Shown here piece by piece: positions 7,935 to 58,459 of a stretch of 64,000 bases of DNA. The notes under the pieces were generated by a model. It saw nothing but the letters and a program-made list of their open reading frames with translations, did no database searches and was not told the origin of the DNA. Location: positions 11,721 through 75,720 of the IMG/VR virus record IMGVR_UViG_3300025133_000072; one strand, written 5' to 3'. The DNA is from a virus. How positions within the stretch are numbered: position 1 is the first letter of the stretch; every line of letters begins with the position of its first letter. The position numbers and the translations under genes are program-made.

Positions 7935-8324
7935 TTAGGACTTGGGAGGTTCTAAGCGCACCGAGTCCTCGAAAAACGACTCATACGCTTCGTGAACATC
8001 TTCAGCAAATTTAGTGTTGCTCTCATTTAACAATGTTTTGATCTGAGGACTACTGATGGGAGTCCAACGAGCTTTGAAAGTTATCTCAAACTCTACCGGG
8101 AAATCCTTGCGGAGATCCCCGAGCCTATCCTGATCCCAGCCCATTTTCTCTTTAGATATGATGATCGCCTTGCCCGAACCTGTTTCTAGCGTTACGGAAG
8201 ACTTGCCTTGGGGAACCGGATTTGATTTGATCAACTCGGCTTTAAGAGCTTTAAGCTCTTTAGTAAATTTTTCCGAGAGTCTTTTGAGCTTTAGCGCTCT
8301 TCTGATTTTGTCTTCTGTTTTCAT
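7935..8324 (-). CDS. Hypothetical phage protein
   Basis: SD AAGGAG and a repeated promoter unit upstream. Confidence 0.7.
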   Translation of the reverse strand: MKTEDKIRRALKLKRLSEKFTKELKALKAELIKSNPVPQGKSSVTLETGSGKAIIISKEKMGWDQDRLGDLRKDFPVEFEITFKARWTPISSPQIKTLLNESNTKFAEDVHEAYESFFEDSVRLEPPKS

Positions 8325-8424
8325 GCTGCTCCTTTGTCTACCTACTCTTATAGTATAACACTTCTATAAGATCTTGTATAGTATTATAGTCTTTATTGAA
8401 TATGGAACATGATATACTCTCTCT

Positions 8425-8855: not shown

Positions 8856-9047
8856 TCAAGGGATCATAGGTTTTCGTCCTGTTATTGTTCTAAATGCCTG
8901 ACAGATAAAATTTTCCCCAATAAACAGACCTCCAATAAAAGACTGATCAAGATCTCTGTATGCGCTTTCCATAGGCACTTGACCATGCCATTTTACGTAT
9001 TCTCTGATTTCTTTATGGGGGTAATTGAACTCAACGGTTATACGCAT
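8856..9047 (-). CDS. Small hypothetical protein
   Basis: GGAG SD before MRITVEFNYPH. Confidence 0.45.
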   Translation of the reverse strand: MRITVEFNYPHKEIREYVKWHGQVPMESAYRDLDQSFIGGLFIGENFICQAFRTITGRKPMIP

Positions 9048-9555
9048 AGAAAGTCTCCTCTTCTCGCCTGCTGAAAGCATCCACAATATACAGAGGAAAG
9101 GACCCATTTTTGAAAAAATGATCTATGTGCCTGCCCTGAACTATGCCGTATTCATTTCTTTTTCCGCATATATCTACCCAATAGATTTCTTTGGATTCTA
9201 TCTTGAATTGAATGGAAGGGGAATCCTGTTCAAAAGCATCCATCGTAGATTGAAATCGATTGCCCCATTCCGTGGATAGTTGAGGCTGAATATCATGCTC
9301 CAAATAAGCTTCACCCCATTTGGCTTGAGCATATCCCAAGCATTTTCTGATCCTCATGGCATAAGAACTGTCCATGATATAGGTGTGTCTTTCCTCTTCC
9401 ATAGTCCCCAAGCTTTTCAGATCCAGTACGCCTCTGATTAAGCCTTGTATACCAAGGAGAATATCTGCGTGGCGTGGAGACCGTTTTTTCTTTCTGTCGA
9501 GTCGAGGAAAAATAGGCGTTACCAAAAGGACTTGAATGGATTCTTCTTCAATCAT
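9031..9555 (-). CDS. Short DUF3150-like paralogue
   Basis: LDRK...GLIRGVLDLKSL...YIMDSSYAMRIRKCLGYAQAKWGEA aligns with the core of 10514..11368. Confidence 0.55.
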   Translation of the reverse strand: MIEEESIQVLLVTPIFPRLDRKKKRSPRHADILLGIQGLIRGVLDLKSLGTMEEERHTYIMDSSYAMRIRKCLGYAQAKWGEAYLEHDIQPQLSTEWGNRFQSTMDAFEQDSPSIQFKIESKEIYWVDICGKRNEYGIVQGRHIDHFFKNGSFPLYIVDAFSRREEETFYAYNR

Positions 9556-9979
9556 CGATAGCCTTTGACATTATTTCCAGGTGTGTTTTCTTCTCCAGAT
9601 CCTTCGGGAGCATAAGCACTTTTCTCAATCGGTGCATAGGGCTGTCGGGGTCTTCAAAAAGAGATTGGTATTCTTGATCATATCTCTGAGCAATCTCCTG
9701 AAATTCGTTTTGGAGTGTGGACAGGATCTCTCGGAAGTCTTTCATAAGATCGATTTCGTAAATGATCCAGAACTCATTTCCATTATATCGCTTTGCTCGA
9801 ATGCCGTGTTCCTTTTGAAATTCTTCCAGGGCATTTTCGATCTTAGCTCCAAAGCAATTCATCTCACTCCGGAGAACCCCCATTTCTGGAACCTTGTCCA
9901 TTTGAGTTCGGAGCCTGTGATCATTAGAGGGCTCCCATATTTTGATGATTATGGTCGTTTTTAGATATTCTGTACCCAT
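9548..9979 (-). CDS. Short DUF3150-like paralogue
   Basis: FWIIYEIDLMKDFREILSTLQNEFQEIAQRYDQEY. Confidence 0.5.
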   Translation of the reverse strand: MGTEYLKTTIIIKIWEPSNDHRLRTQMDKVPEMGVLRSEMNCFGAKIENALEEFQKEHGIRAKRYNGNEFWIIYEIDLMKDFREILSTLQNEFQEIAQRYDQEYQSLFEDPDSPMHRLRKVLMLPKDLEKKTHLEIMSKAIDD

Positions 9980-9992
9980 GCCTATCCTTTGC

Positions 9993-10436
9993 TTAAGTCC
10001 ATTTAGGCTCTTCAAAATGATGGGGGTCGGGTGCTTCTAGTGCCTCATCCGTTAATTCGATTTCGATGGTAAGGACGAATAGACTATCCAAAGTCTCTTT
10101 GAATTCAGGTCCATTACCTCCGTATTTTGTAGCCATTTCCTCTTTTGTTTTTTCCCAGGAGGTTTTGACTTTTTCAATATGCTTTCTAAAATCCAGGGCC
10201 TCTGATCCCGGAACCAAATAAGTGGTCCAACGATCCGAGCCGAATGGAGCATGTTCTGAATTCCTTTTTACTAAAACCCAACCCCTTACTTCATGAGCAG
10301 TTGCCAGGAGATCGAATAATGTGTTTATGCAGTCGAAACTCTCTCCTCCTATATTCAGAGATTTTCCAAACACTGAATTTTTTCTTGTTTCCCATTCTTC
10401 TACGTGGGAATAGATTCTGACTTTTAGATTTTTCAT
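9993..10436 (-). CDS. Short DUF3150-like paralogue
   Basis: AHEVRGWVL...YLVPGSEALDFRKHIEKVKTSWEKTKEEMATKY. Confidence 0.6.
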   Translation of the reverse strand: MKNLKVRIYSHVEEWETRKNSVFGKSLNIGGESFDCINTLFDLLATAHEVRGWVLVKRNSEHAPFGSDRWTTYLVPGSEALDFRKHIEKVKTSWEKTKEEMATKYGGNGPEFKETLDSLFVLTIEIELTDEALEAPDPHHFEEPKWT

Positions 10437-10513
10437 TTAAAAAAACCTCCTTCCTACAGGTATATCCAGAGCCTCCTTTTTTCAGAAGCCCTGGATAGTT
10501 ACTTGTCCTTGAA

Positions 10514-11368
10514 TTAGAATCCAAGGGAATTGATATTCCCCAGGATGTCGTTGGCGATCTCGGCGGTACTCTTGCGCTTCTTTTCATCTTCCCTGAGTTC
10601 TTCCGGAGAGTATTTCGAGACTTCCGATAGGCGCTTGCCCAGTTCCTCGATGTTCTCATCATCCGAAATATTCAACCCTGGAAGAATTCCAAGAAGTTCT
10701 GAGATGTTATTGATCAAGCTGTTTTTGAAGATCTTGGGCTTGCCCTCTTCACGATCCTCAGCCAGCCTGTCTGTAACCGAATGAGCCACTTTCTTGATCC
10801 TGTTATACAGATCTCTCAAAGTATCCTCTTCCGTAGACTTAATGGATTCTGCGACTGACTTACGGATCTCTTCCATGTCCTCATCGTCTAGTCCTGCAAT
10901 CCTGAAATCCGAGCTATCCGGAACCGGATAAGCCTTGACATCAAAAGCGAACTTGTCGGAAATCTCAGCCGGGAATTCGTTGATGTCATACAGATCTCCC
11001 AGACGCTCTCTGGCCTCTTCACGAGCTACGTCATAGTTCGCAACGAGCCTAGCAACAGCATCATTCCACTTGCCATGATACTCAGCTTCCTTCTTGCGGA
11101 AGTCCGAGAAAAGCTTGATGGGAAGGACCCTGGAGCCTGTATCGCACCAAGGCAGCGTCATTTCATAAAACATCCCACGGATCTCTCCTGCTAGGGATTC
11201 GACCTCTTTGAGATGCTCTTTGGAAATCAGGCGCTTGTTGTAGCGACCAGCATCCTTAGCAGCCCCATTGTTTTCGTGTACTTCTTTGGTCGCTTTGCGA
11301 TCCAGCTTACGAGCAGTCCACCTTGAAATGCTCAGATTTACTAAAATGGATTTAGTGTGTAACCCCAT
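10514..11368 (-). CDS. Full-length DUF3150-like protein
   Basis: ILVNLSISRWTARKLDRKAT...TLPWCDTGSRVLP...FPAEISDKFAF..PVP..SDFR; a family I recall as typically adjacent to AAA/vWA genes in phages. Confidence 0.7.
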   Translation of the reverse strand: MGLHTKSILVNLSISRWTARKLDRKATKEVHENNGAAKDAGRYNKRLISKEHLKEVESLAGEIRGMFYEMTLPWCDTGSRVLPIKLFSDFRKKEAEYHGKWNDAVARLVANYDVAREEARERLGDLYDINEFPAEISDKFAFDVKAYPVPDSSDFRIAGLDDEDMEEIRKSVAESIKSTEEDTLRDLYNRIKKVAHSVTDRLAEDREEGKPKIFKNSLINNISELLGILPGLNISDDENIEELGKRLSEVSKYSPEELREDEKKRKSTAEIANDILGNINSLGF

Positions 11369-11453
11369 CTCCAACCTCCAGTTAGTTTATACTTTGTTTC
11401 CCACTCTTTTAGTATAACACCTTTCTATTAGAAAGTACATGTTGTTTTAGTTT

Positions 11454-11684
11454 TTATCCCTCTTCCTCTTCCAATTCATCCTCTAAAAGCTCAATCCACT
11501 CTCGAAAGTTGATGAGATCATGCTCAAACGAGAGCCAATCCACATCGGTCATCAAAGAAATTGCATCCACTTCCCCTTTGAAGGATTCAAGAGCTAGACG
11601 CTTTGTTTCCGGGGATGTAGCCACTCTAGCCAGATAATTGGCTTTGGCCTTCTCTAATCTTTCTGCTGGATTTAATCGTGTCAT
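11454..11684 (-). CDS. Small acidic hypothetical protein
   Basis: SD GAGGAGG. Confidence 0.6.
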   Translation of the reverse strand: MTRLNPAERLEKAKANYLARVATSPETKRLALESFKGEVDAISLMTDVDWLSFEHDLINFREWIELLEDELEEEEG

Positions 11685-11696
11685 CTCAAAACCTCC

Positions 11697-12017
11697 TCAA
11701 ACATCTTCCATGTAAATTGATTTTCTAGCCCTTGCCCACTCAGGGATATATCCAAAGGAATGATAAAAATCTTCGATTTCGTATCCTTCTGCTGGAGTGA
11801 TAGTTCCCCTTTGTATCCCATCTGCAACATGGAGAAAAATAAAAGCCCCATGTCCTTTGGGATTCCCGTCCTTGTCTTTTCTATATGAATGAAAACGATA
11901 GGTCATTTCCAGTGTCTCCTTTGAAAGGGAGTCATGGATATATGGAGGGAGTCCTCTGCGAATTGCCTTTAATGCGTGATCGTTGAACAATGACGCATGT
12001 GATCTCGTATACCCCAT
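11697..12017 (-). CDS. Hypothetical protein
   Basis: SD AGGAGG before MGYTRS. Confidence 0.6.
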   Translation of the reverse strand: MGYTRSHASLFNDHALKAIRRGLPPYIHDSLSKETLEMTYRFHSYRKDKDGNPKGHGAFIFLHVADGIQRGTITPAEGYEIEDFYHSFGYIPEWARARKSIYMEDV

Positions 12018-12027
12018 TTCTAACCTC

Positions 12028-12234
12028 CTAAGTCCATTTAACAGTAAAGTTTTTTGTTCCCACATTTAAGATCATTCCACGACGATTTGCTATACTCTTC
12101 ATAATGTTGATAGCTTTGGTAAATTCGTTTGCATCATCGTTAAGCGCATTCAAAACTAAATCTTTAGGAACCTTGTGATTAGTTTTGTAAAGATCACCCA
12201 TAGCCATGTGAGCTATAATTGATGTGTTTTCCAT
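12028..12234 (-). CDS. Small hypothetical cassette gene
   Basis: Directly follows a copy of the repeated promoter/leader unit. Confidence 0.65.
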   Translation of the reverse strand: MENTSIIAHMAMGDLYKTNHKVPKDLVLNALNDDANEFTKAINIMKSIANRRGMILNVGTKNFTVKWT

Positions 12235-12330
12235 CTTGAACCTCCTTAGTTCTTATCTTCTTCCCACCTACATATATATTATAACAGGTTTATATAAGAA
12301 TAGCAAAGATGTATTAGAATCGAACAAGTC
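12235..12330 (-). repeat. Repeated promoter-leader-RBS unit
   Basis: Reverse complement: gacttgttcgattctaatac...attcttatataaacctgttataatatatatgtaggtgggaagaagataagaactaaggaggttcaag-ATG. Confidence 0.85.
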
Positions 12331-12389
12331 TCTTATAAAACAAGAACCCCCGGACTTTCCAGGGGCCTTGTTGTTAAGGAAGTTCGACT

Positions 12390-13418
12390 TTAGAAGTCAT
12401 CGCCGTCGGAACTCATGTCCTTGGCAATCCAGTCTAAGAAAACCTTATTCTCAAGAGCTTCGGGATCACGTCCGTTGACGATCTCTACCATGAGACTAAT
12501 GAACTCGCCATTGTCTCTCAGGTACTTAATCGCATTTCCGATAGTAACCTTATTTACTTTCATGGCGATTGCTGCGGTTACGGCATACCTTGCACAGAGC
12601 TTGTCTGGCAGATTGATCGTGGTTGGATCATCTGCGGTAAGGATGTCATCCAAATTTGGAATCTGAGTGTAGTAATCCTCAAAGCTCTTCAGAGCTGTCG
12701 CAGCCTCTTCCCCCACTGCTCCAGAAGTCGTTTCGTAATTGGCAATCTTCATTTTGCGAAGATTAGAAACAAACTCCCAGGAACGAGGCGTTGGAAATCC
12801 TCTTTCGCAGGGCTTCTTAGGTGGATCAAGAAGCTTGTCAGCCGAGAAGTTCAGGAATGCGATGATTGTAGGATCAATGGCATTCTTTGCAGCCCACTTA
12901 GTCCAATCAGCAATCGCCACGTCAAATTCCAGGTGTGTGAAACGATTAGCCAGAGGAGCTGGGAGTCGGTTTGTTACTCCACGATCTTCGGCCCTGTTTC
13001 CTGCTGCTACGATGATCCAGCCTGGAGGAAGGGTATAGGAACCGACTTTCCTATCCAAGACCAACTGATAAGCTGCTGCCATTACGCTGGGAGGGGCTGC
13101 GTTAATCTCGTCCAGGAAAAGAATCCCTTTGTCCCCGTGTGTATCCAGGTGAGGGAGAATGGGGGATTCGGAAAAGCTTGTTCGATTGCTGGACTTATCC
13201 ACAACTGGGATTCCCCTCATATCCACAGGATCGATCTGAGAAAGCCTCAGATCCTCGAAACTGATTCCCAGATCATCGGCTACCTTCTTAACCACCGAAC
13301 TTTTTCCTACTCCCATGGCTCCCCACAAAAAGACGGGGATATGCACAAGATCTTTAGGATTGTTCAGGTTGTGGCCTATAAGAGCCTTTAAGAATTTTTC
13401 TGTTTCCATCGGTGTCAT
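12390..13418 (-). CDS. MoxR-like AAA+ ATPase
   Basis: Walker A GAMGVGKS, Walker B LFLDE, AAGNR, LANRF, PTPRSW. Confidence 0.9.
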   Translation of the reverse strand: MTPMETEKFLKALIGHNLNNPKDLVHIPVFLWGAMGVGKSSVVKKVADDLGISFEDLRLSQIDPVDMRGIPVVDKSSNRTSFSESPILPHLDTHGDKGILFLDEINAAPPSVMAAAYQLVLDRKVGSYTLPPGWIIVAAGNRAEDRGVTNRLPAPLANRFTHLEFDVAIADWTKWAAKNAIDPTIIAFLNFSADKLLDPPKKPCERGFPTPRSWEFVSNLRKMKIANYETTSGAVGEEAATALKSFEDYYTQIPNLDDILTADDPTTINLPDKLCARYAVTAAIAMKVNKVTIGNAIKYLRDNGEFISLMVEIVNGRDPEALENKVFLDWIAKDMSSDGDDF

Positions 13419-13556
13419 GTTGAACCTCCTCATTTGGTTGTGTTTTCCTGACCTACTCTCTTAGTATAACCCACGGCTAAAAGCTCTGTCAATCATTTTT
13501 ATTCTTTGCAAACTCTCTTATAAACCCCTATAATATAGAGAAGGAGGTTTGACAAC

Positions 13557-14042
13557 ATGAGTGGAATTTTAGTTAGAGTATCATACTGTGGGACTGCCAA
13601 AATTCTCCACTTTCTTAAAGAGCTTACTTATAACACCAGCCCTTTAAGAATACATAAGAAGAAAGCCATAGACTCTAGAGGGATAAAAGAGGTTGAACAG
13701 GCTTTGAATTTTCTGTGGAATCGGTATCGAAGGAACCTGCCGTTTAAAGGGTCTTCTTGCTCTAATAACAGAGCATTGGTCTTTTGGTTAAAAGCGGGAG
13801 CTATTGATTTCAGAAAGACTTTGGAAGTGTTCAAAGCCGACTGGAAAAAAGATGTTATCAATGTTCTGAGAGATCATCTTCCTTTCAATGTGTCTGAAGT
13901 AAAAGAAAGCATAGAGGAGTTTATGGACGAGTCCCTTAATATACAAGTGGACTCATCTTACCTGGATTACAAACCAAGTCTAGGGGGAATGCTCAGTAAA
14001 ACATCTTTTGATATTGAGGTGGGAAATGAAAATTCACCTTAA
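13557..14042 (+). CDS. Short DUF3150-like paralogue
   Basis: SGILVRVS..TAK, IKEVEQ...NLPF, IDFRKTLEVFKADWKKDV. Confidence 0.6.
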   Translation: MSGILVRVSYCGTAKILHFLKELTYNTSPLRIHKKKAIDSRGIKEVEQALNFLWNRYRRNLPFKGSSCSNNRALVFWLKAGAIDFRKTLEVFKADWKKDVINVLRDHLPFNVSEVKESIEEFMDESLNIQVDSSYLDYKPSLGGMLSKTSFDIEVGNENSP

Positions 14043-14439
14043 AACCAGATACTCTGATCTCTATAATCTCCTCTTGTCTCATAAAACAAGAGCCCAGAAA
14101 AAAGGTCCTGGCTTCTGGCCTGTTGTAAATTTTTATGAGAGCATGATCCATGCCTTGTATTTTTTTAATAGGCCCCTTGAAGGAATTCATAGAGCGCTGG
14201 GCTCGAAAAGTCTCTTATGTTTGACAGGTGGGTACGTGGTTGCTCCTTCGGAAATTTTGTCTGTTAGAAGAAGCTTAGAATCCGCTAAACAAGGATGGGT
14301 GGAAACTAGGATTACCTACGTGTCTGAATACTCTCGATGGGTGGCTGGTATGCATTCTCGTTTCCCTCAGATTTCTTTTCCGTCCCCGGCATTAATTGAA
14401 TCTTTTTTAGATCTATCTTACGGAGTTGAAGATGATTAA
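14026..14439 (+). CDS. Short DUF3150-like paralogue
   Basis: GGYVVAPSEILSVRRSLESAKQGWVETRITYVSEY...FPSP. Confidence 0.55.
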   Translation: MKIHLKTRYSDLYNLLLSHKTRAQKKGPGFWPVVNFYESMIHALYFFNRPLEGIHRALGSKSLLCLTGGYVVAPSEILSVRRSLESAKQGWVETRITYVSEYSRWVAGMHSRFPQISFPSPALIESFLDLSYGVEDD

Positions 14440-14889
14440 CGAGCCTGGAATATTAAACCGAGACGAGCCTGTTTTGAGATATGCATTGAAGACTCTATCC
14501 GATGTTCAAGGAGCCTTAGATATGGTGCCTGCATATGTTTTGATTAAATAGAAGGACGACAGGACTACTCCAGGTCAATAGGATTCCATAGAAAAATTCT
14601 CTATCTTTTAGAAGACAAACTTCCTCATTGTATTTTTGACAAGTTTGTTCAAGGGTCTGATCTGCTTTTGTTAAGGAGGCATTTAACTGTTCAAAAAGGT
14701 ATATGGAATGAAGCTGTAGCAGAACTCTTGGATCATTTGGATTATGGGGAAACTCATGATTTCATTCGAAGAGGATTTCCGATAGAAGAGTTCAAAAATA
14801 ATTTGAAGGTAAAACATATCCTATTCAAATGGGATGAGGAGACAGACAGATGGGTGAACGAAGAAAAGAAGCAGGAGAAGGGGACATGA
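14432..14889 (+). pseudogene. Short DUF3150-like paralogue with a -1 frameshift at about 14548
   Basis: MINEPG...VLIK* then the -1 frame IEGR...KLPHCIFDKFVQGSDLLLLRRHLTVQKGIWNEAVAELL. Confidence 0.5.
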
Positions 14890-15314
14890 ATAATTTTCCC
14901 GTTCTAGAATATGAAACCAAACGAACCGAAGTAGTCGGATGGAAAAGGCTTGTACGAAGAGCCCACAAAGCTCAACTTGAATCAGAAGCAGATGTTAAGT
15001 TAGCTATGTCCCCTTATGACATGTTTGAACTTCTTACATATGAACAGAAGTTAAGAGGAATCCTTGTTCAAGTCTCTTGCCTGGAATTTACTAATGAGAA
15101 ATTTACTTTTAGTTTCTACGGAATAAGTCCTTCTTCGGTACTTCAAATCAGAAACGAATTGGAATTGTTCAGTCAAAAATGGGATGAGGCTTTGAATCGG
15201 ATTCTTTCTGTTTATGAAAGGCAATGGGAAGGTGGTTTGAAAAGACCTTATCTTCCACCACCAGAAGAATTAAAAGAGCGCTGGAGATTCCGAATTAAGG
15301 AGAAATCCGAATGA
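14886..15314 (+). CDS. Short DUF3150-like paralogue
   Basis: EQKLRGIL...SSVLQIRNELELFSQKWDEALNRILSVY...LPPPEELKERWRF. Confidence 0.6.
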   Translation: MNNFPVLEYETKRTEVVGWKRLVRRAHKAQLESEADVKLAMSPYDMFELLTYEQKLRGILVQVSCLEFTNEKFTFSFYGISPSSVLQIRNELELFSQKWDEALNRILSVYERQWEGGLKRPYLPPPEELKERWRFRIKEKSE

Positions 15315-15691
15315 TGCGCCTCATTGTAAAGTGTAAATGGAATTCTTTTCATGAGCATCTCCAAGGACTTAACACCCTGTTTCTTGTAGATAGGGACCCT
15401 CGTTTTACAAAGCCTTTTAACACTGTGTGGATGAAAAATATAGTTGGGATTATCGCTCCTATAGGGGACATAGCACACAACACAAACACAGCACTCAGCC
15501 ACGTAGATTCCATCGTAGAGATAAGAAAGATATGGACTAAATCCCAATTGCTATGGGAAGAGGAATCTAGGCTCGTTCTTCAGAAATGGGAGAATGTTTT
15601 GGTGTATCAAAAACAGGTTGAGATTTTCAATCTTGCCGATTCCAAACAAGTAATCGAATGGCTGCATAGGAGTCATGAACTCAATTTATAA
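15311..15691 (+). CDS. Short DUF3150-like paralogue (more diverged)
   Basis: SIVEIRKIWTKSQLLWEEESRLVLQKW. Confidence 0.45.
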   Translation: MMRLIVKCKWNSFHEHLQGLNTLFLVDRDPRFTKPFNTVWMKNIVGIIAPIGDIAHNTNTALSHVDSIVEIRKIWTKSQLLWEEESRLVLQKWENVLVYQKQVEIFNLADSKQVIEWLHRSHELNL

Positions 15692-15789
15692 ATTTATTCT
15701 GTCTGTTTCTAAGACAAAGTAGACACTCTATTATAGACATGCTATACTAAAAGAGTGGGGTAAGAAGTAAGAGACTCAAGGAGGTTTGA

Positions 15790-17019
15790 ATGTCAGATAA
15801 AAAAGTTTTTAACAGTAAGGCCGAGAAGAAATACAAAAGGGCCAAAAGATCCCTTATGATTCTTCATCCTTTTTTTGGGCCTTTGATTGTTCGATTGAAG
15901 CCTATTCAGAAAGTGGAAGTAGGAACGGCTGGGGTAGATGGGGAATCCTTATTTTACAATCCAGAGTGGTTTAATACCCTTTCCGATCAGGAAGCTGTTT
16001 GTCTGCTGGCTCATGAAGTCATGCATTGTGCGCTCGGACATCATACCCGTCGAGGGAAGAAGGATAATAAGCTGTGGAATATTGCTTGCGATCATGCAAT
16101 TAATATTCTTCTAGATGCCCATGGGAACATCCTTCCTCCAAATCCAGTAATGGATAAGAAATATGACGGATGGCCCTCAGAGAAGATCTATGCAGACATC
16201 TACGAAGATCAGCCCCAGAATCCAGGCGGAGGAGCGGGTAATGGAATGTCTGGTAGTGGGACTGGGAACAGTCCTGGGAGCAATCCTGGAAATGGTCAGC
16301 CTGATCCTAATGCTCCAGGGCAGTGGGGTCAGATTTTAGATGCTCCTAAAGGCTCTGAAAAGGAATCAGCGTCTGACTGGGAAGCAGCTACTATCGGTGC
16401 TGTAAAGATCGCTCAGATGCAGAAGAGCAAAGGAACCAATCCTGGATTTGCAGACAGATTGGCTGACATGTTCGGCCTGTATCACAAAGTTTCCTGGAAA
16501 GAGGTTCTCAAGAACTTTGTCCAGACCTCTATTGGTGTGGATGATTTTACCTGGAAACGTCCTGGTAGAAGGGGTCTTTCGGAAGATCTGTACCTCCCTC
16601 ATAGAGAAGGGGTCAAACTTGATGGAGTTTGGGTAGCTATTGATACATCCGGGTCTATCGATGACAAGACTTTGCAGATGTTCAAGACTGAAATTGAAGG
16701 AATCATGGAAATGTTTCCGAATAGCGAAGTCGGCTTGATGTTTTGTGACGCAAGGCTGCACAACATTTCAATGCAGAGCGCTCCTCTGGATTTCAAACCA
16801 AAGGGCGGAGGCGGAACTGATTTTCGTCCGGTATTCAATTATTTTGAGGAGCAGTACATCAATCCCAAGTGTGTGATTTACTTAACCGATCTTTACGGAA
16901 GCTTTCCGGAAGAGCCTCCTTTTTACCCGACATTGTGGGTTGTAAAGGACGGGCCTTCAAAGCCTGAAGATCATGTGCCTTTTGGCATTACAATTGTACT
17001 TGAGGAAGATGATGATTAA
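15790..17019 (+). CDS. DUF2201-type metallopeptidase + vWA domain protein
   Basis: TAGVDG, LAHEVMH (HExxH), WNIACD, Gly/Asn linker, MIDAS DTSGS, GGGTDF, YLTD. Confidence 0.9.
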   Translation: MSDKKVFNSKAEKKYKRAKRSLMILHPFFGPLIVRLKPIQKVEVGTAGVDGESLFYNPEWFNTLSDQEAVCLLAHEVMHCALGHHTRRGKKDNKLWNIACDHAINILLDAHGNILPPNPVMDKKYDGWPSEKIYADIYEDQPQNPGGGAGNGMSGSGTGNSPGSNPGNGQPDPNAPGQWGQILDAPKGSEKESASDWEAATIGAVKIAQMQKSKGTNPGFADRLADMFGLYHKVSWKEVLKNFVQTSIGVDDFTWKRPGRRGLSEDLYLPHREGVKLDGVWVAIDTSGSIDDKTLQMFKTEIEGIMEMFPNSEVGLMFCDARLHNISMQSAPLDFKPKGGGGTDFRPVFNYFEEQYINPKCVIYLTDLYGSFPEEPPFYPTLWVVKDGPSKPEDHVPFGITIVLEEDDD

Positions 17020-57529: not shown

Positions 57530-58459
57530 ATGGGACAAGGGAAAATGAAGATAAAGTTTCAATACCATACTTTGTTTGGTCAGGCGTATGCTTGGTTCTA
57601 TAAGAAAACAGACAAAGCCCCTGGAAGACCCAATATTTTCTACAATACCAAACCTGTGTCTGTTCATCGCAGAGTTAATAAAATTAGATCCTTCTTATGG
57701 GAGATGGGCCAGCTCTACAATACTTTTATAGACCTTCAGTTTCCGATATATACTTCTGGTCAGTTGATCGGTTTGAGGAAAAGATTAGAACCAGAGCATG
57801 GGGCTTGGCTTGAATGGACAGCTTTAATCGAACGGGAATACACAAGTCTGTACCAGGAGTTCCAACAGAAAGAAAAGCTAGTTCCTCCAGATGATTTTCT
57901 CAATTCCCTGAAGATCCAGTTTGAGTTTGGGGTATTGGGAGAGGTTCATTCTTCTATCTCCCAATTGACCAGGATAGACTACGGCACTTCTTCTGATTTC
58001 AAGAATCTAGAAAAATTTGAAGCTCGGATGGTTCGGACCAATGAAATAGAGAAAGCTATCTTAGAGACTCTAGATGCTTACAAAGATCTTCCTTTTGTAG
58101 AGGCTCTTTTACGTCGAGCGAAATCCAATATAAAAGGAAACAAGCGATTTATCGAACATTCCATAGAACAGTGCAAGGCCCAGGAGGGGAAGTGCCCGTT
58201 TAAAGTAGGGATGTCTGTTCTGATAACAAAGCAGCGATTCAACCAAACAGGACAATATCCCGGAATCATATCCAAGGTAGATCCAAAGAACTTCAAACTT
58301 GTGTGGATTGATTGCAAGGCATTGAGTGGAGCCAAGGGCAAGGGGGTTAAGTTTTACAAGGATCGTTATGGAAGTTGGGCTAAGTGGGGGTCTGGAGCAG
58401 ATTCTTATGGCCCTTCCTATTTTATTTTGGATTCTGAGGGAAAGCGATTAGGTCGGTAG
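57530..58459 (+). CDS. Hypothetical protein (possible C-terminal SH3-like barrel)
   Basis: 309-aa ORF; CPFKVGMSVLI. Confidence 0.6.
   Translation: MGQGKMKIKFQYHTLFGQAYAWFYKKTDKAPGRPNIFYNTKPVSVHRRVNKIRSFLWEMGQLYNTFIDLQFPIYTSGQLIGLRKRLEPEHGAWLEWTALIEREYTSLYQEFQQKEKLVPPDDFLNSLKIQFEFGVLGEVHSSISQLTRIDYGTSSDFKNLEKFEARMVRTNEIEKAILETLDAYKDLPFVEALLRRAKSNIKGNKRFIEHSIEQCKAQEGKCPFKVGMSVLITKQRFNQTGQYPGIISKVDPKNFKLVWIDCKALSGAKGKGVKFYKDRYGSWAKWGSGADSYGPSYFILDSEGKRLGR

Follow-up and report, generated by a model that had tools for sequence, protein, structure and literature searches.

What could a phage gain from surrounding a single three-gene module with a set of short, strongly diverged genes, and where would such genes come from? 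The question is raised by a 64,000-nucleotide stretch of phage DNA (the window), which covers bases 11721–75720 of the 75.7-kb IMG/VR virus record IMGVR_UViG_3300025133_000072. The module comprises genes for a MoxR-class AAA+ ATPase, a zincin metallopeptidase fused to a vWA domain (type A of von Willebrand factor), and a full-length DUF3150-like protein; short open reading frames (ORFs), named here by their first coordinate, lie on both sides of the ATPase gene. A first-pass annotation made from the letters alone had read about eight of these ORFs as paralogues of the N-terminal part of the DUF3150-like protein. Six of them are supported by profile comparisons as relatives of that domain and a seventh, 9548, is a probable member, while 15311 is not supported. 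We favour, with some reservation, the interpretation that the N-terminal domain was duplicated within this phage lineage and that the resulting proteins are kept by selection and work with or around the module.

Relationship of the Short ORFs to DUF3150

The reference for all comparisons is the 10514–11368 product. Against Pfam DUF3150 (PF11348) it scores 14.1 bits (E 0.029, profile positions 5–196 of 257), below the gathering score of 24.9. It has 70 homologues at 30–40% identity, many with a precomputed PF11348 assignment, and its AlphaFold2 (AF2) model, with a predicted local distance difference test score (pLDDT) of 94, matches the BFVD models of DUF3150 proteins at E 7e-22 to 1e-16 and template modelling (TM) scores of 0.77–0.89. 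Because it has the same fold and is encoded in a MoxR-class AAA/vWA neighbourhood, the protein is a divergent DUF3150 member. Solved structures include none like the model except generic helical bundles. One homologue, P0063 (468 aa, 32% identity, 97% coverage), carries a precomputed PF09967 (vWA-like) assignment and may be either a DUF3150–vWA fusion or a merged gene call.

The short ORFs were examined with leave-one-out hidden Markov models (HMMs), each compared with every one of the 828 ORFs in the six frames of the genome. The omitted sequence ranked first or second for seven of the nine family members, the full-length protein included (E 9e-3); 9548 and 15311 were not recovered among the 828 ORFs. 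The hhalign comparison of the short proteins, proposed in the first-pass annotation, bore out six of them: leave-one-out P values were 7e-7 to 1.5e-3 for 9031, 9993, 13557, 14026 (also scored as 14008), 14554 (the core piece of the broken copy 14432) and 14850 (the longer form of 14886), and 7.7e-4 for the N-terminal domain of the full-length protein. The best of 99 decoys, ORFs of 100–220 aa from the same genome, reached only 0.028, and six unrelated families of small paralogues from related phages gave P of at least 0.064 in the same test. For 14554 the individual values were P 3.8e-4 by hhalign and E 5e-5 by leave-one-out HMM. The 14026 product also finds 14850 (2e-4) and 9993 (1e-3) by BLASTP and has a weak Pfam DUF3150 match in register, with residues 73–121 on profile positions 73–121.

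The relationship can also be followed between two profiles that share no sequence, one made from the eight short ORFs without the full-length protein (A3) and the other from 68 full-length relatives without the short ORFs (A1). These align at P 0.0027, colinearly over 114–124 columns that correspond to residues 8–145 of the full-length protein. The score of 28.3 lies above background: the reversed control gave 12.1, and 97 valid column shuffles gave at most 15.8 (three shuffles with artefactual scores on 3–22 columns were excluded). The A1 profile alone ranks 9548 second and 9993 third of the 828 ORFs, in the correct register; its match to 9548 has E 0.019 and places profile positions 60–122 on residues 66–129. 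Therefore, 9548 is a probable member on the strength of this ranking.

An AF2 model of 9993 was built from the A3 profile alone. Its elements follow the order of the full-length N-terminal domain: first a strand, then helices, a long helix with RG at its end, two paired strands, a helix of 29 residues, a short helix and the last strand. When the model was searched against BFVD with Foldseek, the top 50 matches contained seven of the eight DUF3150 entries that the full-length model matches at E ≤0.001, at ranks 1, 3, 10, 12, 14, 25 and 48. As far as the models can be trusted, this enrichment would not plausibly have arisen by chance. An ESM Atlas look-up of 9993 gave no usable match, and the Atlas model itself is poor.

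Several of these results weigh against the proposed relationship. Each similarity taken by itself is weak (18–25% identity, 10–43 bits). Confidence in the 9993 model is low (pLDDT 61), and its Foldseek matches are singly non-significant, with E values of 0.03–0.95 and TM scores of about 0.4. Furthermore, 9548 fails the leave-one-out hhalign test (P 0.099) and 15311 fails every test, its leave-one-out P of 0.15 falling inside the decoy range.

These weaknesses bear on a rival explanation, according to which the short ORFs encode small helical proteins that are not related and have a short amphipathic R...W motif in common by chance or convergence, the link to DUF3150 being a product of the by-eye search. 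In line with it, pairwise BLAST E values among the short ORFs are mostly above 0.01, single sequences give P 0.01–0.5 against the family profile, and database relatives from which independent profiles could be made are lacking. Yet the register of the weak pairwise alignments is consistent, and the profile alignment remains colinear over more than 110 columns. Moreover, the leave-one-out scores beat all 99 decoys, other small-paralogue families do not go below P 0.064, and the seven specific BFVD entries were retrieved with a model built without the full-length protein. We regard chance or convergence as very unlikely.

Origin of the Copies and Retained Residues

The source of the copies can be traced through three residues of the full-length protein. 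G65, R91 and W101 occur in 3, 8 and 3 of the 68 family members, respectively, and occur all together only in the full-length protein of this phage. Every short ORF has R91, seven of the eight have W101, and RG is found in most. Since these rare residues are common to the short ORFs and the resident protein, the resident gene is the source of the copies, which arose in this lineage.

Of the fold-core residues, the copies retain W17, R64, L82/P83, F90–R91, W101, Y112, P133 and F140. Conversely, the DAGRYNK loop with its invariant K45 cannot be aligned in the short ORFs and the TLPW loop is lost too. The short proteins end after the last strand of the N-terminal domain, at the point where the full-length linker P148-x-P150...D154-F155-R156 starts, and thus lack the C-terminal helical bundle, as the first-pass annotation had noted, together with the family-invariant residues N233 and R265. 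With the invariant loop residues and the C-terminal bundle missing, the short ORFs are, judging from their sequences, derivatives of one DUF3150 domain and not full members of the family. The loss of the most conserved loops also argues against simple interchangeable subunits that dock in the same way as the full-length protein.

Searches for relatives of the copies returned only the phage itself. A profile of the eight short ORFs found this phage's own proteins only among 1.84 billion representative proteins, and close-relative scans of IMG/VR with 9993 and 14850 gave no matches. A search for stand-alone N-terminal domains of the full-length type yielded one 94-aa protein on a 1.7-kb contig, where it may be cut at the contig end.

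A further candidate member lies at 57530–58459, far from the array. Every leave-one-out HMM matches it (E 4e-4 to 0.05), and hhalign gives P 0.0043 against the short-ORF profile and P 2e-4 in the leave-one-out set. Its first 135 residues agree with the profile of the short paralogues (IRS...LRKRLEPEHGAW), and it carries IRS...FPIYTSGQLIGLRKRLEPEHGAW in the family register. Among 5.8 billion clusters its product finds itself alone and is thus an ORFan.

Gene Status and the Broken Copy

Most short ORFs have Shine–Dalgarno (SD) sites, and several of their starts overlap the preceding stop. The in-frame codon score is positive for every copy, at 0.08–0.18 per codon, compared with −0.07 to 0.08 for shadow ORFs and 0.26 for the full-length gene. 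The reading frame of 14432 is interrupted by a one-base frame change at the TAG at 14549–14551. A contig from an independent run (X2) covers 14415–14662 gap-free with the same broken sequence; an assembly error confined to one data set does not, therefore, explain the frameshift. The possibility of programmed frameshifting at 14549 was considered and dropped: no slippery heptamer is seen at ATT AAA TAG, and for this reason 14432 is treated as broken. Nearby, position 14516 carries G instead of T in contigs of two runs, which changes Leu to Val.

The copies could accordingly be genuine duplicates of the N-terminal domain that have no function, left over from repeated tandem duplication and in the course of being lost. 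Such birth-and-death debris would fit the presence of one frameshifted copy in two independent samples, the absence of the invariant loops and of the C-terminal domain, the ORFan status of the copies, and codon scores that are lower than that of the full-length gene and touch the shadow-ORF range. The state of the reading frames speaks in the other direction. Seven or eight frames of 126–174 codons have remained open at about 20% pairwise identity, from which we infer that the copies are kept by selection. At 42% GC about 6% of random codons are stops, and an open run of 140 codons has a calculated chance of the order of 1e-4. The SD sites, the coupled starts and the fold-core residues have been kept as well. 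We consider it unlikely that the array is debris.

Core Genes, Gene Layout and Transcription

For the three core genes, the module assignment of the first-pass annotation was confirmed by agreement among Pfam, PHROG, conserved motifs and the AF2 fold match. The AAA gene scores above the Pfam cut-offs for AAA_3 (38 bits, cut-off 27) and AAA_5 (32.9 bits, cut-off 22) and matches PHROG 1297 at 5.7e-88. The zincin–vWA protein exceeds the cut-offs for both DUF2201_N (145.7 bits, 2.7e-42) and DUF2201 (78.9 bits, 4.5e-22). In an alignment with 25 relatives, H75, E76, H79, H84, D285, S287, S289, T343 and D367 are invariant. As these residues make up the HExxH motif, a further histidine and the DxSxS/T/D motif of the metal-ion-dependent adhesion site (MIDAS), the zincin and vWA activities are probably intact. 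Assignment to the cobalt chelatase CobS/CobT was rejected: PHROG 249 is only a weak secondary match, CobN is absent, and the vWA protein has a zincin domain.

Table 1. Coordinates of the short ORFs, core genes and transcription signals of the module region, and of one distant candidate
Feature	Position	Strand	Details
Short paralogue, 174 aa, N-domain-like, last gene of left operon	9031..9555	-	leave-one-out hhalign P 5.4e-4; HMM rank 2/828, E 0.0012
Short ORF, 143 aa from ATG 9979 (155 aa from TTG 10015), probable member	9548..9979	-	
Short paralogue, 147 aa, best supported, strong SD GGAAGGAGG	9993..10436	-	leave-one-out hhalign P 6.8e-7; HMM E 5e-7
Full-length DUF3150-like protein, 284 aa	10514..11368	-	N-terminal alpha/beta domain ~1–150, conserved linker, C-terminal helical bundle ~160–284
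Promoter −10/leader unit TATACTAAAAGAGTGGG	11400..11416	-	exact match upstream of full-length gene
Three small ORFs, non-members	11454–11684, 11697–12065, 12028–12234	-	between full-length and AAA genes; no Pfam match, missed by family HMM
Terminator-like hairpin just past AAA gene	12345..12367	-	10 pairs, 6 GC, then T-run
MoxR-class AAA+ ATPase, 347 aa	12390..13433	-	Walker A GAMGVGKS, Walker B LFLDE
Promoter TTGACA-18-TATACT and leader unit for AAA gene	13452..13492	-	
Promoter-like site TTGCAA-17-TATAAT for right-hand array	13505..13534	+	
Short paralogue, 161 aa, strong SD	13557..14042	+	leave-one-out hhalign P 1.5e-3; HMM E 0.023, rank 2
Short paralogue, 137 aa from ATG 14026 (also scored as 14008)	14026..14439	+	leave-one-out hhalign P 3.1e-4; HMM E 1e-3
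Broken paralogue	14432..14889	+	ATG 14432 to TAG 14549–14551 (39 codons); family core in another frame, 14548–14889
Short paralogue, 142 aa from ATG 14886 (154 aa from 14850)	14886..15314	+	leave-one-out hhalign P 3.5e-4; HMM E 2.5e-5
Short ORF, 126 aa, membership unsupported	15311..15691	+	leave-one-out P 0.15; R...W motif; position inside array
Promoter TAGACA-17-TATACT and leader unit for vWA gene	15720..15759	+	
Zincin metallopeptidase (HEVMH, H84) fused to vWA with complete MIDAS motif, 409 aa	15790..17019	+	
Candidate extra member, 309 aa	57530..58459	+	N-terminal 135 residues on family core; ~40 kb from array

On the minus strand, three short genes (9993, 9548 and 9031) come after the full-length gene, and on the plus strand five short genes lie between the promoter-like site at 13505–13534 and the vWA promoter. 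The AAA gene, which has a promoter and a terminator of its own, makes up a single-gene cassette. In the 10437–10513 spacer between the full-length gene and 9993 (minus strand) there is an imperfect hairpin, TATCCAG...CTGGATA, which has no T-run and precedes the strong SD site; within the operon, this hairpin might serve for processing or attenuation.

The promoter/leader unit that the first-pass annotation had seen before the AAA, vWA and full-length genes is indeed present at all three, but it is not specific to them. The unit TATACTAAAAGAGTGGG also precedes the gene at 8324 (match at 8341), with five matches against 0.22 expected, and it is one of a set of promoter units spread over the genome. 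Because it is genome-wide, the unit says little about the three core genes in particular. At 12232–12331 and 11397–11432, contigs from marine runs end at the dispersed promoter/leader units or continue into unlike sequence; one contig has 40 different letters at 12255, and word depth reaches up to 29 across 12252–12522. The units behave like repeats, or like junctions between cassettes that vary in the population.

The phage origin of the DNA is supported. The window comes from a marine IMG/VR record and has genes for a replication initiator, a DnaB-like helicase, a DNA polymerase, a UvsX-like recombinase and a ribonucleotide reductase. An SNF2 helicase gene lies immediately downstream of the module and array, and replication genes also adjoin the region. 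The record lacks end repeats and has an estimated completeness of 86%, and three marine metagenome runs, which belong to three studies, contain near-identical contigs. A megablast search of the module region against cultured phages gave 0 matches, so there is no close cultured relative, and Rfam and tRNA scans of the 64-kb window gave no matches.

Possible Role of the Array

Within the lineage, the resident DUF3150 gene has had its N-terminal alpha/beta domain duplicated repeatedly. This has given at least six, and probably seven or eight, stand-alone proteins of 126–174 aa, one of them now broken, encoded in two operons that flank the AAA gene. The short proteins may act with or around the ATPase/protease-adaptor module as diversified target-binding heads, decoys or regulators. 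On the pattern of other MoxR–vWA pairs, a partner protein would be held by the vWA MIDAS and remodelled by the AAA ring, and could be cut by the fused zincin. That one domain of one subunit has been multiplied and diversified suggests that this domain is under diversifying pressure and is likely the target-facing part.

Early takeover of the host, or evasion of its defences, is the most likely setting. This is favoured because the module has replication and recombination genes around it, like its counterpart in IncC plasmids. A role of the array specifically in counter-defence is a tentative suggestion that we would not put beyond a possibility. Still more doubtful is the idea that the array is a germline repertoire in which each truncated copy recognises or mimics a different variant of a host protein, for example a defence factor, and either delivers it to the ATPase–protease or shields the phage from it. 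If this were true, the unrelated small-paralogue arrays found beside the same module elsewhere would represent the same idea realised with other folds, and the module would serve phages and conjugative plasmids as a general, programmable engine of counter-defence.

Other observations count against selected proteins that work with the module. The codon bias of the copies is weaker than that of the core genes and one copy is broken, which fits partial decay. The short ORFs are confined to one phage population, so their conservation is not measurable. With the invariant residues gone, they may no longer touch the module at all. Two published accounts also point elsewhere. In a transposon-insertion sequencing (TnSeq) screen of an IncC plasmid, the five genes reported as depleted, vcrx089–093, exclude the DUF3150 and VWA genes just downstream (PMC7498323). 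A role in virion assembly has been proposed for the MoxR/peptidase-vWA pair of jumbo phages (Iyer et al. 2021, PMC7824862).

The same loss of the most conserved loops, the likely partner interface, would be expected if the copies were real paralogues whose role is unrelated to the module, such as small regulators or DNA or protein binders of the early region, and which adjoin it only because the duplications happened there. The AAA cassette with its own promoter and terminator, the candidate member 40 kb away at 57530, and the fact that unrelated small-paralogue arrays are common in early regions of phages are also consistent with such a role. On the other hand, the full-length gene is apparently in one transcription unit with three of the copies, and the vWA gene has five copies directly upstream of it. 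In addition, small-paralogue arrays adjoin the same module in other phages (three genes in MinM2, six in L039). We find a module-unrelated role unlikely, and continue to prefer duplicated domains that act with or around the ATPase and protease. The finding would tie the recurrent small-gene arrays beside the module to the module's own biology, and the hypothesis is open to testing in tractable relatives such as cyanophage MinM2, IncC plasmids and N4-like phages.

Distribution and Comparison with Known Systems

The first-pass annotation had named AAA, vWA and DUF3150 triads from mobile elements, and the trio proves to be recurrent there. A scan of IMG/VR gave at least 599 pattern matches and at least 585 confirmed relatives of the DUF3150 protein on viral contigs. 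Gene neighbourhoods were compared for 80 viral loci; the AAA, DUF3150-like and zincin–vWA genes were all present in 79–81 viral loci retrieved, almost always on one strand. The paralogue count in related phages, which had been suggested as a check, gave exactly one full-length DUF3150 copy in each of the 80 loci and no extra DUF3150-like ORFs, although copies as diverged as those of the window would be hard to detect there. Synechococcus phage MinM2 (OQ594354.1) has the annotated order MoxR, DUF3150, VWA. The trio also occurs on a conjugative Simplicispira plasmid, a DUF3150 relative is found on 61 other plasmids, mostly from Burkholderiales, and IncC plasmid pSN254 has the order AAA, hypothetical, ssb, bet, exo, DUF3150, VWA. 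The zincin–vWA family is present in 691 cultured phage records, many of them about 73–78 kb and N4-like in look, plus jumbo phages; tblastn finds the DUF3150 partner in just three cultured phage records. The trio is therefore among the commoner uncharacterised modules of phages and conjugative plasmids and part of the backbones of IncC resistance plasmids. In the paper collection that was searched in full text, one paper names DUF3150.

Among the closest known systems are the trios of MinM2, of conjugative plasmids from Burkholderiales and of IMG/VR contigs. These contain the same three families, with full-length proteins 31–40% identical and alike in fold, and the HExxH and MIDAS motifs are conserved as in the window. 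They differ in having co-directional genes and one DUF3150 copy, whereas in the window the genes are on two strands and seven to nine truncated copies of the N-terminal domain lie around the trio.

In the IncC plasmid pSN254 (NC_009140.1, 93624–101617; locus L090, 5625–13618), hde genes are followed directly, on the same strand, by genes for DUF3150 (425 aa) and VWA (598 aa) proteins. In the hde (host defence evasion) operon of IncC and SXT-R391 elements, which acts when the element enters a new host, the AAA gene vcrx089 and its neighbour counter type I restriction of incoming DNA in the recipient cell (Roy et al. 2020, PMC7498323). A MoxR/CbbQ-class AAA_5 ATPase is thus encoded in one co-directional run with DUF3150 and VWA proteins near recombination genes, similar to the gene content of the window. 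The likeness between the window's AAA protein and the Vcrx089/Vcrx090 anti-restriction pair is one of class and gene neighbourhood only: the AAA protein has no CbbQ_C match at E up to 1, and tblastn finds no IncC plasmid. The IncC DUF3150 and VWA proteins are larger than those of the window, and IncC has no paralogue array. The IncC and MoxR leads are of interest for counter-defence because the anti-restriction AAA pair lies in one gene run with DUF3150 and VWA, which is circumstantial evidence. A phage MoxR ATPase has also been described as an anti-defence gene in a preprint (bioRxiv 10.1101/2025.11.20.689424).

The AAA+ and peptidase-vWA pair of N4-like phages (Schitoviridae) and jumbo phages belongs to the same zincin–vWA family, with matches to PHROG 1297 and 1314. 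Unlike in the window, no expansion of a subunit domain is reported for this pair in PMC7824862.

A common logic of MoxR, vWA and a diversifying third component links the window with the ternary conflict systems of bacteria (Kaur et al. 2020, PMC7159879). There the rapidly diversifying third component is VMAP or iSTAND and peptidase domains are found on the vWA protein; the third component of the window is DUF3150-like. The ternary systems are borne by the host, carry C-terminal effector domains on the vWA protein and diversify by domain swapping, in contrast to the truncated-paralogue array of the window.

Arrays of tandem, fast-evolving small genes in or beside the module are found in other phages as well. 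MinM2 has three tandem small paralogues (112, 111 and 115 aa, 34–51% identical) between the DUF3150 and VWA genes (locus L086, 7878–8904), and two IMG/VR phages have six (L039, 3091–4946) and four (L061, 2887–3903) tandem small paralogues of 75–98 aa upstream of the trio. They resemble the array of the window in this respect, but they are unrelated to DUF3150 (hhalign P ≥0.064). Among the arrays compared, as far as their sequences tell, one that is built from the module's own subunit is seen in this window only.

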